DNA of 64,000 nucleotides, taken from the IMG/VR virus record IMGVR_UViG_3300031623_001144, positions 3,971 through 67,970 of that record. One strand, written 5' to 3'. A program made the translations under genes and the position numbers. The notes under the pieces were generated by a model. It had not been told where the DNA came from and did no database searches. It was given only the letters and a program-made list of their open reading frames with translations. Source of the DNA: a virus. Position 1 is the first letter of the stretch; each line of letters begins with the position of its first letter. Shown piece by piece: positions 3,801 through 43,255 of the stretch.

Positions 3801-6331
3801 TCTCCGCTTACAAACACAGACCTATTTGCCGAAAGACCTTCCCCAGATTCAAATTCCAAATTCCCATTGATCTGTATTCTGGAAATATCCAGATAAAAGT
3901 CCACAGTTAAATCAAAATCAACACAAAAATCAGCACACTGGGGGATGTCGCAAACATTCACTTCTTCAAGTGCATTGCAATTTCCATTTTCTTCATCAAA
4001 GTCATCAACTAATTTTTGTTGAGCTTCAAAGTCATCAATGATATTTCCCAAAGAAGCCGGTCTAGTAAATCTTTGCACCGACTCAATTGGAAGGATAAAC
4101 TTCCTTGCACTTAGCTTCTCGCAAAGTTCAGGCAATGATCTTGCTTGAACATTCAGGATATATTTTTGACAACAAGGATCGGCTTTAAGATTACACTCAC
4201 TTCCATCTCTTGCTTTTCCAATGACACGATAGAAAAATATTCCCAACTCGCCTGTGCTCCACAAGAAAGTGAGATCATTGAATGCAATGCTTCTTATTCT
4301 CCAAAGGAACTTCGTGGCGATATCGAATCGAGAATTAACAAGCGTCAAGTCAAGCCTGTTGTCAAGAATCACACCACCAATTGCGTTGTATTTCGCATCA
4401 GTGATGCCTTCGTTGCTTGCTCCTCCTCCAGTATCTACAGAAGGAGCACCAGTGCTAACCCATGATCTAGGCCCTTGGAATTTATTGACATTAGCCAACC
4501 CACCAAGTATCGCTCCACCAACTGGAATTTGCTCAGTTGCAATTACGGCAACTGCTGCCCCTGATGCTAATACACCACCTTGCATGGTGAATGATTGGAA
4601 AACATCTGAAGCTCCAGAAATTAAAGCTCCACCTTGCGGCCAGTAAAAGCTTAGAACATCAGCCACTCCCCCGGCCAACAAACCGCCGCCAACAAGTGCA
4701 TTTATAACAGAATCGTTTGCCGCCGCTCCAGCAGCGATAGCTCCACCTGATCCTACTTCATTAAAGAAATCAGGAACATGCGCAGCACCACCAAGAAGAC
4801 CACCACCACTTCCAAATATTTCAAGACTACCTGAAATAAAACCAACACCACCAGCTAATATTCCACCACCAACTTCAATGACATCAGAAGATGTGACTAT
4901 TGCTGCTCCAGCAACAATAGCCCCTCCCGAACCTACCTCATCAAACTCTTGAGGAATATCCGCAATGCCTCCAAGGATACCACCGCCACTTACAGACATT
5001 GCAAAATTAGACGAAACGGCAGCAGAGCCTCCAGCTAACGATCCTCCTATTGGTGTTTCAGTCCAAGTTTGAGATACAAGAGATGTTCCGCCAGCTAATG
5101 AACCGCCATTGATAGAAGCATTAAAAGCATGGACCGTTACAACAAGCTGGAAATTATCCATGTATAGAGATTGAGAGTTGCCACCACCACCGATATCAAA
5201 GATGTCACACCATACTCCAGCACCAGTTTCATCAAGACTAATTTTTGATAAAGCACCTGAAAACTGAGTAAACACTCCAGCACCACCCCCATTCGGAGCA
5301 ACGGACTGATTTGCTCCTAGTGCTGTAAAATCGCCAAAAATATGAGTTGTAAGCATCGCCGACAACCGACTGCCACTGGAAATTGCATCTTGACTATAAA
5401 ATGAAATCGTAAACTTTGTGCCAACATCATAACCAGAAATGTCTATCTCGTCATGATAAAAGTATTCAGCACCCGTTGTGCCAGAATCGGGAGTAACAGA
5501 CACATTTTCATGCTGAACTGTATCATAATCTGTTCTCCAATTTCCAAAATCAATGTTCCAATGATCTAATCCACATTCAAAACTAGGATTAGATAACAAA
5601 TTTATTGAAGAAACAAAATCAACACAATTGAAAGCGAAGCCGCCGCCTAAAGCTCCTCCGTCGCCACTTAAAGATGCGGAAGAAGTAACAGCAGCCGATC
5701 CTCCTGCTATGGAGCCGCCGCCCACCTCAACAACATCATAAAATGTTTGTGTAGCTGATCCGCCACCTGAAGCACCGCCGCTGATTGTTGTAACGTAAGC
5801 AAAGTGATAATTGATTCGCATAGAACCATGATCAACAAAAGCCGTTCCATCACCAGTACCATCAACCGTCGCAAACAACACAAATCCAAAATCTGAACCT
5901 AACACTTCATCGGTTGTAGGAGCTTCAGACCATGTGTCAGAAACTCCTCCATAATCTTCTGTCCCATCTGAAGCAGGCCACGAAGTGGCAGAAGCTTTAT
6001 CTGCCCCTCGTGTAATGGCACTGTTCGTTCCATCAGACCAAACCAAATGCAGGTATTCATCTACAATTCCATCAATCCCGCTATCCTTTCTATCGATGCG
6101 GACTTCAATTCCTTCAATTATAGCTTCTGATGTCAATCCACTAAAAGCAAAATTAGAAAAATACAGACCGTCAGACGTGCCATCCATCGTGCCGTCCAAT
6201 GCAACTGTTGCATAAGATCCGTCATTGCTAGTGGCATTGCTGGGACTTGTCCAAGCGACCAACCCTACTGGAATATCCAGAGAGTCATCAGTTATTGTTC
6301 CTGCATTTGTAAAGGCCGTCTGTCTTGACAT
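824..6331 (-). CDS. Very large (1835 aa) putative virion structural/tail-associated protein with internal repeats
   Basis: Gly/Ser/Ala/Thr/Asp-rich; many GG-x-x-x-GG-x-A repeats; three copies of a ~150-aa beta-rich domain (F..I.G..V...D..L.LV...WP...YG...D...FG); Cys-containing linker segments. Confidence 0.6.
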   Translation of the reverse strand: MSRQTAFTNAGTITDDSLDIPVGLVAWTSPSNATSNDGSYATVALDGTMDGTSDGLYFSNFAFSGLTSEAIIEGIEVRIDRKDSGIDGIVDEYLHLVWSDGTNSAITRGADKASATSWPASDGTEDYGGVSDTWSEAPTTDEVLGSDFGFVLFATVDGTGDGTAFVDHGSMRINYHFAYVTTISGGASGGGSATQTFYDVVEVGGGSIAGGSAAVTSSASLSGDGGALGGGFAFNCVDFVSSINLLSNPSFECGLDHWNIDFGNWRTDYDTVQHENVSVTPDSGTTGAEYFYHDEIDISGYDVGTKFTISFYSQDAISSGSRLSAMLTTHIFGDFTALGANQSVAPNGGGAGVFTQFSGALSKISLDETGAGVWCDIFDIGGGGNSQSLYMDNFQLVVTVHAFNASINGGSLAGGTSLVSQTWTETPIGGSLAGGSAAVSSNFAMSVSGGGILGGIADIPQEFDEVGSGGAIVAGAAIVTSSDVIEVGGGILAGGVGFISGSLEIFGSGGGLLGGAAHVPDFFNEVGSGGAIAAGAAANDSVINALVGGGLLAGGVADVLSFYWPQGGALISGASDVFQSFTMQGGVLASGAAVAVIATEQIPVGGAILGGLANVNKFQGPRSWVSTGAPSVDTGGGASNEGITDAKYNAIGGVILDNRLDLTLVNSRFDIATKFLWRIRSIAFNDLTFLWSTGELGIFFYRVIGKARDGSECNLKADPCCQKYILNVQARSLPELCEKLSARKFILPIESVQRFTRPASLGNIIDDFEAQQKLVDDFDEENGNCNALEEVNVCDIPQCADFCVDFDLTVDFYLDISRIQINGNLEFESGEGLSANRSVFVSGEAEVSNTKNLFAGFYEAVPADWKADNAAIAYSNHYIGDGGAIFSIVAETEFTNWQFTGGEWPRHSGLPTGTTSLSQNNLEGQNNPSAVAWQVTENALTEDGVFAQVDVSFLKESEYLIVRGFDLNLPSDANIFGFNVWINLLSTQVGVRDVSIVLVKGDTIISDNIPLNFDWPLISTTRIYGSSGIADLQVPFSSENVWDVDDLNGSDFGVAFRVKDVSNIGTSIAFVDSIKVEATWEFKNKDNLKTGGISGITSSAWHYESSGGVVVDGDVSPVKTTLIWTARGLGVGQPTGLVMGGGYSIGLSYTSDSFHYEWEDNGTVNPANIFYDSDWPENGENESLSTLLGGPAVAASSWTNPERAILADASSISSPSYAIVDLKTVDLVSEFLVVRGWPFDLDDHMKVVGLRVVVANRFAQNSPISGFFSTDETSSVDDGVDTVSNYDVLDHIPIVAGTLSGTIFDGAVAVQTFSIDSVGAFTLSPIGSPVVRVTTGVLDPNTGTLILVWDGNPGPNHVVVEYEYSYLETDIKDSHLYLVNGDTIRSDNLADTSLKWPNVPISLFYGSNGLDELTPFRDLDADPLTPDEINNPNFGVAIAVSNFDGTGNAFAKIDGIAIELTIEAFGRTLVAITEPKVGGSADAVPQFVDFIGGGGLVAIGGAEVKPFWETMQGGLVFNVDPPDPLQALLDGPIVTAIYTHDVLGGIGVGGLAEVPEGVFSFTSSGGVFTGGTARQAKNAWEYVSDGNIVFISGSADATPGSLSTPVEKFFFDMVVLQTNASFAEDEDLQDVEGLSDTVTQCGCTALPLVVEFGHNLVRDNIFAKFLARNGFPISDTLLLRYNTTNDSWQTNLHFDGWSPDADTKEKWDLIFELQCTNNMGGINIGMNIWKVAVEIFRRNLTTFEDFDTRIIVGILPEDLCDVNANELDFEVNYNTLLNAADVNPLATIYQNTIYDNIGLFKNPSWTFDPELILTVSQSGVKEDQERVDLTDAVFV

Positions 6332-39385: not shown

Positions 39386-42300
39386 TTACACCAATTCAAA
39401 CTGCATATCGTCTAAATCAATGGTTTTGTCCTCTGATCTCTCAGGTAATTTCATCGGCCTGATTCGATGATCTTCTTCTTTAGGAGGCAAATGTCTTCTT
39501 TTATGCTTTGGAACAGAATCAAATGTAAGAGTGTTAAATCCACCAGAAGGTGGTCTCACACGTATCTTAATCATGTTTCCTTGAGCGATTTCATCATGCC
39601 AACGAATATAATCATCCATCCAAAAGTTCATTTTCATTACACGTGCATTAGCATCTTCAAGTTCAATTGTTTTGAACTCCACATCATTCTTGCTAACACG
39701 ATGCTTTATGGATTTAACCTTAACCTCAACCATACCGGCAGTGTTTCCAGCGACCTCACACTCTGCAAAGAAAACATCAAATGTTCTTCCAGAGAAATCT
39801 GGACTGGTTTCTAACTCATGAGTCCATTGAAAACCATAATACGATCCTTCTGCCATGGGATAAGTGATATTACCATCAAGCTCCATGTCATTCTTCAAAA
39901 TCTTCTCTTCTTCTTCGTCCAATTTGATTGACGCTGGATTAAATTGATCCAAAGTAATTGGGTTATCTGTGTCTTCAGTTTCTTTCTCATGGAAATTCCG
40001 AAGACTGATGCCCCGTCTTTTAGACAAACCTTGAAGTATGCTTAATACAGTAACATCTTTGGTTTTCGTTTCTCCCTTGGTCTTGTATTCAACTTCTGTG
40101 ATCGTGTCATAAAATCGTTCTTCCCATTTCTTCTCAGCATCTTCTGTATAATCGCTCATTAACTCAAGGTCTGGATCACTCTCTGGAACGTGATCTAACA
40201 AAACCGCTTTTAGCTCTTCGAGCTTTTTATCCATGGCTTGTTCAAATCTCTTTTTTCGTTCACGCCTCTTCTTGTCTGAGTCCTTAAAGAACTCAGAGAA
40301 CTTCCGCAAAGTCACTCGATCATATCCCTCATCAAAAACACCCAAGGCAGTCAAGGCTTTTATTGCGGTGGCATCTGTGCCAAACTTGTTCAAGAAGTCA
40401 GTGAAGTTGTCGTAAGGCTGTTCCTCAACAATTCGCTGAGCCACAGCTTCTCCCAGACCTTTGATGTTTTGAAACCCGAAGTAAATTTCATTATCATCTA
40501 TATGAAAATTTTCACGAGATCGGTTAATGTGAACAGGACATATATTCACGTCATGCTTCTCTGCATCGAGCTTGTACTCTCGAAACTTCTCATCATCTTT
40601 CTCACACATCAAAATTGCTGTGTAAAACTCAATGGGATAATGAGACTTCAACCACAGCAAACGAGATGAGATGTAAGTGTAAGCATAACTGTGACTATTG
40701 CTTGTTACAATGCCATTTGGTAAGAGAAAATTGTGGGTAGGATTGGTGACTTCAAGATCACACATTTGTCTTTTGCCCACGTAACGGACTCCCACAACCC
40801 TCCGAGACACCAAACCCCCGGTGTTGGTGATCGGAGCATGTCCTGAAACAACTCGTACCACTCCTCCTGCATCGCTCCTGAACTGCTCTTGAAACATGTC
40901 ATGTCGATCCGAAGCAACATCACATCTCCTCGACGTATCGCCTCGTCCCTCAACATTTCGTCCCGTTGTTGGACAATATGCAGCTTCCCTTCTCTGTTCT
41001 TGCAAGCTGGATTGAAGAAATGATAAAATCCGTCCACCTCGATCCAAATTTTGTCTTTCACAAAATCGACCTGTTTTCTCTCTTCTCCACATCGAATTTG
41101 TTTCATGTCCCATCCTATCTCTTGACGAAGCCATGCCTCCATTCGAGATCGTTTCGGACTTCTCCAAGCTGCTTCTGTGCATTTCGCAAACTTCTCGGGA
41201 TTCTCTTCCCGCCACTTCTTCAATTGTGCAGCACGTTGAGCTTGAATCTCTGGACGAGCCGAAGTCTTCTTGGCTGTCTCGGAAAATATCTTCCTGCGAT
41301 CTGGATGTTCGTTGTCTTTGTTCAACTTCTCCATCTTGAGACGTATATTTTCTTTCTTGATCGCCTCGCACTTCGTACATTCCTTGAAGTGACTCTCCCG
41401 CAACCTCCAAGTCTTGAACTCCATTCCGCAACGTGCTTTGTGAACTACATTGCCCCAACCCAACTTCTGACACTCCGAACATTCTTTGTGATGTTTGGTC
41501 ATCAACTTCTTGGTTCTCTCCACTTTCCCACATCTGGTCTTCCAACCACTCTTCTTCGCATTTGACATAATTCTCTCCTATATGTTTATCAACACATACA
41601 GAAGAGTGTGTTCTGCAAATTTCTCGAAGTGGCATTTGTCCTTTTTCTGTAAGAAACTTATGATCAGCAGAACAAGTCACTTGATAGCCATCATCAAATT
41701 CCACTTCAAAAGCATCTAAAACCCCATGGTCGTGTACTGCAACCACTTCTGTCTCAACAGTATTTCCGTCTTCATTAACGCAAAATACTGTTTCTCCGGG
41801 TTCGAATTCGCATATTGGCTTCTCACCACCGGGATAAATAACCAGTGTGCTCTTGTCAACCGATTTGTTGAAACCGTACTCGGCGAAGCTTTCTATTTGC
41901 GCCCACAAGTTAGTGACAAAATCCTCATTGACTCTAAGATTTTGTTTCCCGTTCTCAACAAACATTTCTTTGTATTTGATGAACCCTTTGACATTCTTCT
42001 TTGAGATAGCTTTTCTAACTTTCTCTGTGTGCATGTCAGGAATACTGCCTACAACTCTAAGAATGTCCATGACCTGTTCTTGATATGCCATGACACCATA
42101 TGTCTTACCCAGAATGCTCTGCATCAAAGGATGAATGTTGTAAGACTCTTCTCCTTGCTTTCTTTTACAATACCGAGCATCCATGCCCATTCCCAATGGA
42201 CCGGGACGGTAGAGAGCAGAGTAAGCCGCCATATCATCGAAGCAATCTACCCCGCCACGTTTGACCAACTTGCGAATGCCTTCGCTATCAAACTGAAAGA

Positions 42301-43255
42301 TGCACTTAAGGTCTGCTTTATTTGCCATATTGAGAGAAGCAGGGTCATTCAAGTATTCAATATCTGACCAATCCCAGCTTCCGGGTAAAGCACAAATCTT
42401 CTCTACGCCATGACGTTCTTTAATCAGATGACACGCAATGGCAATCTGCATCAAGTTGTTAATGACAAGAAGGTCAAACTTAATGAGGCCCACAGGTTGA
42501 AGGTCTTGTGCAGCCAACCCTTCTGTCCAAGCAGAGCAGATGACTCCGTGGGGATTTGCTTTGTTAACCGACCGTACTTCCATTGGAACAAAGTCTCCAA
42601 TGGGCTGATCTGAAATAATCAATCCACCAGCATGAACACCACCCGATTTATTTCTCCCCTGCATTAAATTGGCAGCACTAGAAACATCTTCATGCGCCTC
42701 ACAGTACGCCCTAAATTCAGGATACATTTCAAGAGCTTTGTCCCACTCTAAAACTTTTCCCTCATCATCTTTATCTTCCATCTTAACAGTGATGCCCTGA
42801 ATTTCTGTTTTGGAAAGTCCATGCACTCCTGTCATATCCAGCATGGCTGATTTGATGCCTGCTGTTCCATAAGTTCCAATCTCGCAGATGTTCTCTTGCC
42901 CGAACTTCTCTGCGGCCCACTCACGTTTAAGATAATCTCGCACCGGCTTAAGATAATCGATATCGATATCTGGGAACTCGCCTTGTACGGATGCGCTCTC
43001 CTTATTTACATCAAACTCATCTGACAAGCCCAGCAAAAAATCGATCAGATTATTGTGTTCGTTACAAGAGAACTTTACTTTTCTGTCATAAAGATCAAGA
43101 AAATATTCATGTTCAGCCTGCGCATCAACTTCTTTGATCTCTTTCTTCAAACGACTCATATACTGGTCTTCTTTGCCAAGACCTTTATCATTCAGAGAAT
43201 GTAGACATAGCCTCAAAAGCCTTTCACGTTCCTTCATGCGACTCTCCTTAGTCAA
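39386..43255 (-). CDS. dnaE: DNA polymerase III alpha (DnaE family), C-terminal catalytic subunit; contains an intein
   Basis: FPDIDID, HAGG, KFDLL, IFQF, ALYRPGP, YQEQVM, EYGFNK/SH, PIEFY, HhH IKGLG, OB fold; lacks PHP domain. Confidence 0.93.
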   Translation of the reverse strand: MTKESRMKERERLLRLCLHSLNDKGLGKEDQYMSRLKKEIKEVDAQAEHEYFLDLYDRKVKFSCNEHNNLIDFLLGLSDEFDVNKESASVQGEFPDIDIDYLKPVRDYLKREWAAEKFGQENICEIGTYGTAGIKSAMLDMTGVHGLSKTEIQGITVKMEDKDDEGKVLEWDKALEMYPEFRAYCEAHEDVSSAANLMQGRNKSGGVHAGGLIISDQPIGDFVPMEVRSVNKANPHGVICSAWTEGLAAQDLQPVGLIKFDLLVINNLMQIAIACHLIKERHGVEKICALPGSWDWSDIEYLNDPASLNMANKADLKCIFQFDSEGIRKLVKRGGVDCFDDMAAYSALYRPGPLGMGMDARYCKRKQGEESYNIHPLMQSILGKTYGVMAYQEQVMDILRVVGSIPDMHTEKVRKAISKKNVKGFIKYKEMFVENGKQNLRVNEDFVTNLWAQIESFAEYGFNKSVDKSTLVIYPGGEKPICEFEPGETVFCVNEDGNTVETEVVAVHDHGVLDAFEVEFDDGYQVTCSADHKFLTEKGQMPLREICRTHSSVCVDKHIGENYVKCEEEWLEDQMWESGENQEVDDQTSQRMFGVSEVGLGQCSSQSTLRNGVQDLEVAGESLQGMYEVRGDQERKYTSQDGEVEQRQRTSRSQEDIFRDSQEDFGSSRDSSSTCCTIEEVAGRESREVCEMHRSSLEKSETISNGGMASSRDRMGHETNSMWRREKTGRFCERQNLDRGGRILSFLQSSLQEQRREAAYCPTTGRNVEGRGDTSRRCDVASDRHDMFQEQFRSDAGGVVRVVSGHAPITNTGGLVSRRVVGVRYVGKRQMCDLEVTNPTHNFLLPNGIVTSNSHSYAYTYISSRLLWLKSHYPIEFYTAILMCEKDDEKFREYKLDAEKHDVNICPVHINRSRENFHIDDNEIYFGFQNIKGLGEAVAQRIVEEQPYDNFTDFLNKFGTDATAIKALTALGVFDEGYDRVTLRKFSEFFKDSDKKRRERKKRFEQAMDKKLEELKAVLLDHVPESDPDLELMSDYTEDAEKKWEERFYDTITEVEYKTKGETKTKDVTVLSILQGLSKRRGISLRNFHEKETEDTDNPITLDQFNPASIKLDEEEEKILKNDMELDGNITYPMAEGSYYGFQWTHELETSPDFSGRTFDVFFAECEVAGNTAGMVEVKVKSIKHRVSKNDVEFKTIELEDANARVMKMNFWMDDYIRWHDEIAQGNMIKIRVRPPSGGFNTLTFDSVPKHKRRHLPPKEEDHRIRPMKLPERSEDKTIDLDDMQFELV
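40697..41863 (-). mobile_element. Intein (389 aa) in DnaE between GFNK and SHS
   Basis: Block A SVDKSTLV, block B CSADHKFLT, block F/G MCDLEVTNPTHNFLLPNGIVTSN, +1 Ser; removal restores FAEYGFNKSHSYAY. Confidence 0.9.
40705..41568 (-). CDS. Vsr/DUF559-like (EDxHD-type) homing endonuclease nested in the +1 frame inside the intein
   Basis: QVDFVKDKIWIEVDGFYHF...RD...R.G..LLRI; basic Cys/His N-terminal DNA-binding region; own SD AGGAG at 41575-41579. Confidence 0.85.
   Translation of the reverse strand: MSNAKKSGWKTRCGKVERTKKLMTKHHKECSECQKLGWGNVVHKARCGMEFKTWRLRESHFKECTKCEAIKKENIRLKMEKLNKDNEHPDRRKIFSETAKKTSARPEIQAQRAAQLKKWREENPEKFAKCTEAAWRSPKRSRMEAWLRQEIGWDMKQIRCGEERKQVDFVKDKIWIEVDGFYHFFNPACKNREGKLHIVQQRDEMLRDEAIRRGDVMLLRIDMTCFKSSSGAMQEEWYELFQDMLRSPTPGVWCLGGLWESVTWAKDKCVILKSPILPTIFSYQMAL

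Follow-up and report, generated by a model that had tools for sequence, protein, structure and literature searches.

A phage DnaE intein overlapped in the +1 frame by a Vsr-like endonuclease gene, with signs of selection on both frames

Endonucleases encoded out of frame with inteins

Inteins whose homing endonuclease is encoded out of frame with the splicing domain are on record. Gosselin, Arsenault & Gogarten (bioRxiv 10.1101/2025.01.02.630785) describe inteins of actinobacteriophages in which the endonuclease occupies a frame or strand of its own, among them one with a Vsr-like endonuclease (EDxHD by HHpred), and propose that a free-standing endonuclease gene invaded the intein. Phillips, DeSimone & Gogarten (bioRxiv 10.64898/2026.09.14.751524) describe a dnaX intein of cyanobacteria whose LAGLIDADG endonuclease is encoded out of frame; both studies cite Gorbalenya 1998. 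Here an intein in a DnaE-type polymerase gene of a marine phage is analysed, which is located on a 64,000-nucleotide stretch of viral DNA (the window; positions 3,971 to 67,970 of the IMG/VR record IMGVR_UViG_3300031623_001144) and is overlapped by a complete open reading frame (ORF) for a predicted Vsr-like endonuclease in the +1 frame of the same strand. The evidence makes it highly probable that this is a cis-splicing intein with a separate, overlapping endonuclease gene and that both frames are under selection. A preliminary description of the locus had called the arrangement a third architecture; that claim has to be given up, because the two studies already present inteins whose endonuclease has a frame or strand other than that of the intein. 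The general layout is known from other inteins, and the locus does not represent a new architecture.

The window intein resembles those of Gosselin et al. in being contiguous, in having an in-frame middle part without recognisable fold and in carrying a complete overlapping endonuclease ORF. As far as the available text of that study goes, however, its Vsr-like endonuclease is antisense, its same-strand case is endonuclease VII-like and in frame 3, and its hosts are actinophage terminase, capsid, polymerase and thymidylate synthase, whereas here a sense-strand +1 Vsr-like gene is located in the DnaE of aquatic phages and reaches the structured C-terminal lobe of the intein. The dnaX intein has in common with the window a same-strand overlapping ORF with its own Shine-Dalgarno (SD) element, an in-frame region that is disordered and lies between the splicing domains, an endonuclease frame under purifying selection and mini-intein alleles that coexist with it. 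It differs in having LAGLIDADG in a +2 ORF and a bacterial host gene, and no fractured relatives are reported in the available text. The literature search covered openly accessible papers, those of Dassa 2009 and Gosselin 2025 without their supplements, and brought up no contiguous intein that carries a Vsr-like endonuclease in the +1 frame of the sense strand.

Fractured genes, in which split inteins flank a free-standing Vsr-like endonuclease gene, were described by Dassa et al. 2009 (PMC2677866), including three DnaE loci; in the portion of the paper that was available the model comprises in-frame integration only (steps IIa and IIIa) and no out-of-frame contiguous state. The window shares with these genes the endonuclease family, through the fractured DnaE loci L003, L004, L025, L062 and L066 treated below, as well as the phage DnaE host and the overlap of the endonuclease 3′ end with the C-terminal intein part. 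Unlike in fractured genes, the host ORF of the window is unbroken, with no stop after the N-terminal lobe and no restart before the C-terminal lobe. The prototype of the EDxHD homing endonucleases is I-Bth0305I (Taylor et al. 2011, PMC3239194), to which the window protein is similar in its predicted Vsr-like catalytic fold, its conserved acidic and His residues and, presumably, an N-terminal DNA-binding part. However, the gene of I-Bth0305I lies in a group I intron and its product has NUMOD/helix-turn-helix motifs, whereas the window protein has Cys/His modules and its gene is overprinted on an intein.

Two predicted products of one stretch of DNA

The features of the locus are given in table 1. 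The DnaE ORF matches the Pfam profiles DNA_pol3_alpha (E 5e-23), DNA_pol3_finger (E 7e-39) and HHH_6 (E 3e-16) as well as PHROG 405, DNA polymerase (E 3.5e-131), and represents the palm, finger and HhH part of the polymerase. It is without a PHP domain and begins at position 100 of the Pfam DNA_pol3_alpha profile. The intein interrupts the conserved DnaE motif GFNK-SHS, and its junctions are GFNK↓SVDKS...IVTSN↓SHS, with Ser1, Ser388-Asn389 and Ser+1 as key residues. The class-1 splicing residues are present, namely the nucleophile at residue 1, H68 of block B and the C-terminal N389 (both invariant), and Ser+1. Across 35 aligned inteins residue 1 is Ser or Thr, and it is Cys in L010 and L019; H46, G47, H68, K69, R354, G363, D369, E371, H377, G384, S388 and N389 are invariant in the alignment. 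The N-terminal splicing lobe is conserved in 35/35 of these sequences, and the C-terminal lobe, which the C-terminus of the endonuclease overlaps, carries the conserved block DLEV..HNF.L.NG.VTSN; the linker between the lobes is poorly conserved.

Table 1. Features of the DnaE locus (positions in the window; ↓ marks a splice junction; pLDDT, predicted local distance difference test)
Feature	Position	Strand	Remarks
DnaE-type polymerase ORF	39386..43255	minus	1289 aa including the intein; C-terminal part of DnaE
Contiguous class-1-type intein	40697..41863	minus	389 aa, DnaE ORF residues 465-853; insertion GFNK↓SHS
Intein N-terminal splicing lobe, residues 1-98	41569..41863	minus	single-coding; pLDDT 93-97 (residues 1-90)
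Intein-frame linker, residues 105-345 (241 aa)	40829..41551	minus	S/R/E/G/Q-rich, stop-free, predicted disordered
Intein C-terminal splicing lobe, residues 346-389	40697..40828	minus	pLDDT 93-98 from about residue 350
Putative homing endonuclease gene	40705..41568	minus	287 aa, +1 frame relative to the intein; starts at offset 1687 in the DnaE ORF
Shine-Dalgarno AGGAG	41575..41579	minus	six bases before the endonuclease ATG; overlaps the upstream TAG stop
Endonuclease N-terminal region	41359..41568	minus	two CG-x-H-x3-C-x2-C Cys/His modules
Predicted Vsr-like (EDxHD-type) nuclease domain, residues 125-272	40753..41196	minus	fold match and invariant columns
Doubly structured stretch, about 25 codons	40744..40818	minus	endonuclease residues 251-275, intein residues 350-374

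In the structural model of the intein, built with 35 homologs, pLDDT exceeds 90 at residues 1 to about 95 and 350-389, and the middle (residues 126-319 and 330-343) has pLDDT below 50 and no secondary structure. The confident parts gave 42 matches in the PDB at E <= 1e-3, and those listed are inteins or hedgehog/BIL autoprocessing domains; the Ssp DnaB mini-intein (6frg, E 3.6e-7) and the Npu DnaE intein (4kl5_A, root-mean-square deviation (rmsd) 1.4 A over 95 columns) are among the matches. The intein is thus predicted to form a HINT fold from its N- and C-terminal lobes with a disordered tether between them. The preliminary description had placed a 389-aa intein with N- and C-splicing blocks in DnaE and had assigned to the off-frame translation the role of a linker; the coordinates, the junctions and the HINT model agree with the former, and the predicted disorder between the lobes with the latter. 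It had also noted that the intein frame lacks a LAGLIDADG or HNH endonuclease, and none of either family was detected there by a Pfam scan.

The positions given earlier for the 287-aa ORF and its AGGAG-N6-ATG start hold throughout. The ORF ends 8 nt before the end of the intein, and an in-frame TAG stop is located 12 nt upstream of its ATG. In the clade of the window an AGGAG, GAGG or GGAG element is kept 5-6 nt before the ATG. Modelling with AF2 (AlphaFold2) on an alignment of 45 sequences gave a mean pLDDT of 92.1. Residues 125-272 align with the E. coli Vsr bound to DNA (1cw0_A) with a VIA-align Z of 10.4 over 132 residues, and the model aligns with free Vsr (1vsr) at Z 8.9 and with the I-Bth0305I catalytic domain (3r3p_A) at Z 8.4 (rmsd 2.8 A, 89/97 residues), compared with Z 5.2 for the next-best unrelated match. 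With Foldseek alone no match reached E <= 0.001, the best, weak one having E 2.3e-2 and probability 0.97. E144, D168, E177, D179, H183 and D203 do not vary among 45 homologs and may, by spacing only, correspond to Asp51, His69 and Asp97 of Vsr. The Vsr-like fold together with this invariant set of acidic and His residues fits the EDxHD description, and the Vsr/DUF559-like core proposed earlier, which has no Pfam or PHROG match, is borne out as Vsr-like by the fold comparison (Z 8.4-10.4). The homolog consensus of the N-terminal modules is W..CG..H...C..C; these modules presumably bind DNA. In the doubly structured stretch, pLDDT exceeds 90 in both models and conserved columns are found in both alignments. 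An antisense ORF of 199 aa (40966..41565, plus strand) is also present within the doubly coding region; it has no counterpart of at least 100 aa in L001 or L002 and is probably due to chance.

The following scheme is consistent with these features. Ribosomes translating DnaE would keep to the intein frame across the endonuclease DNA, and this translation would yield a hydrophilic, unstructured tether of 241 aa that links the two splicing lobes. The lobes would form the HINT domain, whereupon the whole insert could be excised and DnaE ligated via Ser1, Asn389 and Ser+1. Second ribosomes would start internally at AGGAG-N6-ATG and produce the 287-aa protein with its Cys/His modules and Vsr-like nuclease domain. 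The presumed targets of this protein are DnaE alleles without intein in co-infecting phages, and by cutting them it could bring about homing. The cost of this layout is directly visible in the sequence: no NNT codon of the endonuclease may stand ahead of AAN, AGN or GAN. That the intein splices is inferred from 41 loci in which a single open frame is maintained through an essential host gene; read-through, cis-splicing, separate translation, cleavage of intein-less alleles and homing are all proposed here from sequence.

Stop avoidance and selection in the two frames

The intein frame acquires a stop at every point where an NNT endonuclease codon is followed by AAN, AGN or GAN. The endonuclease ORF contains 97 such stop-prone sites, 84 at Lys, Asn, Glu or Asp codons and 13 at AGN codons; the former number had been obtained by hand in the preliminary description, together with the absence of any stop, and is exact, the AGN codons raising it to 97. 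A codon ending in T precedes 0/97 stop-prone sites compared with 57/190 other positions (Fisher p = 2.6e-12), and a codon ending in C precedes 31/97 compared with 17/190. This excess of C is the signature of synonymous replacement of T by C, a change that is always available to satisfy the stop-avoidance rule. The depletion of NNT codons, for which the preliminary description had proposed to look, is therefore evident, and 40 further loci likewise have zero. Synonymous shuffles of the endonuclease ORF contain on average 17.7 intein-frame stops, and none of 20,000 is stop-free, as against the observed 0 stops. When, in reverse, the intein-frame codons are shuffled, the endonuclease frame stays open in 29 of 20,000 cases. 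From the two shuffle results it follows that both frames are kept open.

The same analysis was extended to 48 endonuclease ORFs (the window and 47 loci), in which stops were counted and 1000 synonymous shuffles made for each. In 41 of these the intein frame contains no stop, whereas 7.2-24.1 are expected and stop-free shuffles amount to 0/1000 for each ORF. Summed over the 41 contiguous loci, 3851 stop-prone sites are hit 0 times, where 594.6 stops would be expected. The seven fractured relatives, which serve as a control, contain 8-36 stops compared with an expected 13.8-46.7 and are thus near expectation. Since the identity of the endonuclease to that of the window drops to about 33-40% among these loci, the stop-free pattern is not due to recent shared ancestry. 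The suggestion of selection on both frames, made earlier on the window alone, is thereby strengthened by the shuffles in both directions and by 41/41 contiguous loci, and a stop in the linker is not a constant property of the homologs (41/48 stop-free, 7/48 fractured).

These counts also bear on whether the window locus acts as a fractured gene, its DnaE parts being made separately and trans-spliced and its open linker being incidental. Homologous fractured loci do occur at the same site (L003, L004, L008 and L045). However, an incidental open frame is statistically excluded in 41/41 loci, there is no stop, so that ribosomes must continue through, and a scan of 40500..42100 for promoter- or terminator-like sites found nothing above shuffle expectation. 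Trans-splicing of separately made parts is therefore most unlikely for this locus.

The two frames differ in their patterns of change. In 23/23 codon-aligned comparisons with the window the third codon position of the endonuclease is the most changed (0.25/0.19/0.45 for L033), and in the same 23/23 the identity in the endonuclease frame exceeds that in the linker frame by about 20 points (e.g. 0.66 compared with 0.46). The closest pair, L006 and L041, has an identity of 0.956 in the endonuclease frame and 0.889 in the linker frame. The endonuclease frame is thus under purifying selection and the intein frame is relaxed, the absence of stops being the only detectable constraint on the linker frame. 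This pattern has to be set against the view that the endonuclease ORF is a decaying relic, with selection acting on the DnaE/intein frame alone and the +1 frame open by inertia, a view to which mini-inteins without endonuclease at the same site (L028, L029 and L063/L064) lend some weight. Besides the substitutions in the 23/23 pairs, the 29/20,000 of the reverse shuffle and the invariance of catalytic-type residues in 45 homologs, in a model of pLDDT 92, speak against a relic, which is very improbable.

Several observations weigh against the preferred reading, that of a cis-splicing intein overlapped by a separate endonuclease gene. A penultimate His is common in inteins but not obligatory; here the penultimate residue is Ser388 instead of the usual His, and it is invariant in 35/35 aligned inteins. 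With the Pfam family Intein_splicing the window attains 25.5 bits and so falls short of the cut-off of 35.8, which was reached by 2/6 relatives tested, L013 (40.4) and L019 (36.9). The endonuclease ORF has no useful match in Pfam or PHROG (only a weak zinc ribbon at Pfam E <= 1), and a profile of 45 endonuclease sequences compared with PDB sequences gave only chance-level matches to ribosomal and SMC proteins; because Pfam, PHROG and PDB sequences all gave no match, the endonuclease assignment rests on the predicted structure. As for expression, an SD-like element precedes the likely start in just 15/38 contiguous loci by a crude rule, and the sole contig from an RNA library (run X24, 151 nt, 41279..41429) could be DNA carry-over. 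Six loci (L007, L013, L016, L018, L019 and L050) have no ATG ahead of the conserved GW..CG motif, for which a non-ATG start, a downstream start and frameshifting are the options.

Contiguous, fractured and mini forms at one site

The endonuclease protein has 162 representative homologs at E <= 1e-3, and scans of viral and metagenome contigs yielded 66 loci with an endonuclease match. A stop-free frame spans the match in 57/66 of them, and it is always the frame one base upstream (the -1 neighbour). Before the stop count, 19 loci were removed: ten apparent duplicates (L011, L014, L023, L026, L027, L032, L035, L042, L047 and L057), seven short remnant matches (L028-L031 and L063-L065) and two truncated loci (L055 and L061). 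Twenty-four marine or seawater runs contain part or all of the window stretch, and an assembly comparison was made with contigs from four of them, namely X1, which is possibly the source, X8, X9 and X24, the last an RNA library. The contigs of X1, X8 and X9 cover the stretch with 0 differences and 0 gaps, X8 and X9 not being flagged as source; indels, for which the preliminary description had wanted the assembly checked with reads, do not appear in these independent assemblies. That assembly or sequencing frameshifts displaced a normally in-frame endonuclease is suggested by the general possibility only and by a frame switch at a G run in the database protein P0153. It is effectively refuted by the identical, gap-free contigs of X8 and X9, by the same frame relation in 57/66 independently assembled loci and by the fact that a shifted frame would hold about 18 stops. 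The record itself is a 67,970-base viral contig of an estimated 17% completeness, which suggests a very large phage.

Most of the related loci are hosted by DnaE at the same insertion site. Six are located in other hosts, at two further sites (L010/L013/L050 and L016/L018/L019), with the junctions ...↓S/C-x-D...TSN↓SET... and ...MY/MF↓S/C...TSN↓S.L.D... (↓SHLVDS in L019), all with Ser+1. For these six hosts Pfam gave only the intein domain and one weak kinase match below the cut-off, and PHROG two weak, unconvincing matches. L012 and L016 are found on one phage contig of 39,854 bases, with overprinted inteins in DnaE and in a 1682-aa ORF.

The seven loci with stops (L003, L004, L008, L045, L025, L062 and L066) are classical fractured genes, in which DnaE-N and an N-intein ending in a stop precede the gene of the endonuclease, after which comes a restart ahead of the C-intein and DnaE-C. 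Two database proteins have other arrangements. P0153 (859 aa) begins as DnaE-N with the N-intein, and at a GGG run its reading passes over to the frame of the endonuclease; apart from this switch it agrees with L043 (1451-1502 region) in 204/204 and 315/315 residues. It is best read as containing a 1-nt indel in the G run, which may be either an error of sequencing or a naturally occurring frameshift by which DnaE is broken. The N-part of DnaE in P0115 (779 aa) carries a complete upstream mini-intein; at the GFNR↓T site there is an N-intein to which a Vsr-like endonuclease, one of the deep fractured type, is joined in frame. This protein represents a further architecture, an N-intein-endonuclease fusion.

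Single-frame ORFs of this kind, as well as the six loci without an ATG before the conserved N-terminal motif, could be taken to mean that +1 ribosomal frameshifting, and not internal initiation, yields the endonuclease, which would then be fused to the N-terminal lobe of the intein. In the window, however, the endonuclease-frame stop ahead of the ATG and a strong SD at the right spacing argue for internal initiation, and P0153, if it owes its frame switch to an indel, lends no support to frameshifting. The probability of frameshifting is accordingly very small, and a separately initiated endonuclease gene remains the preferred reading.

At the DnaE site three states are thus found: contiguous, fractured and mini-intein, the last in L028, L029, L031 and L063/L064. 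The 172-aa mini-intein of L064 (L064:3715-4230) equals L001:3580-4869 minus a clean in-frame deletion of 774 nt, with few point differences. The deleted segment starts immediately ahead of the SD of the endonuclease, whose gene survives as a 3′ remnant; L064 is thus a deletion derivative. In an endonuclease tree of 48 rows, midpoint-rooted only, five fractured loci form a deep clade, and the fractured pair L008 and L045 (support 97/95) is nested in a clade of 28 rows (99/97) that is otherwise all contiguous. Constraining the seven fractured rows to a single group lowers the log-likelihood by 27.4 units (approximately unbiased (AU) test, p = 0.00025); this test was made on 42 rows, with L019, L041, L051, L058, L059 and L060 excluded, and for a group that was chosen once the tree was at hand. 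With the monophyly of the fractured loci rejected, fractured forms have arisen, and the architecture has changed, at least twice, and for L008/L045 the parsimonious direction is from contiguous to fractured. L045 contains 8 stops compared with 13.8 expected and L008 contains 30 compared with 28.3, which fits a younger break in the former and an older one in the latter. The idea of the preliminary description that the contiguous form is an intermediate on the way to split inteins gains support from the position of this pair and from the rejected monophyly.

What do these overlapping frames mean for the elements that carry them? On the one hand, the layout with an out-of-frame endonuclease extends beyond a few actinophage and cyanobacterial inteins and is deep and strongly selected in replication genes of aquatic phages; overprinted inteins are overlooked by gene callers and easily classed as decaying. 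The locus offers a clean case in which stop avoidance is the only detectable constraint on a translated frame, and the HINT domain appears to tolerate a large insertion in the form of a long disordered tether. On the other hand, the presence of contiguous, fractured and mini forms with homologous parts at one site provides a natural series on the origin of split inteins, which are valuable tools for protein ligation. It is conceivable, although in our judgement somewhat short of an even chance, that the mobile unit has in its stop-free shadow frame a heritable adaptation and that contiguous overprinted inteins are a reservoir that repeatedly yields split inteins, and mini-inteins too. Each fractured gene would then have arisen by a nonsense mutation plus a restart codon, and the mini-inteins by clean deletion. 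If this were true, there would be a concrete one-step path to natural split inteins, and the shadow frame would let the intein-endonuclease unit occupy essential genes without breaking them.

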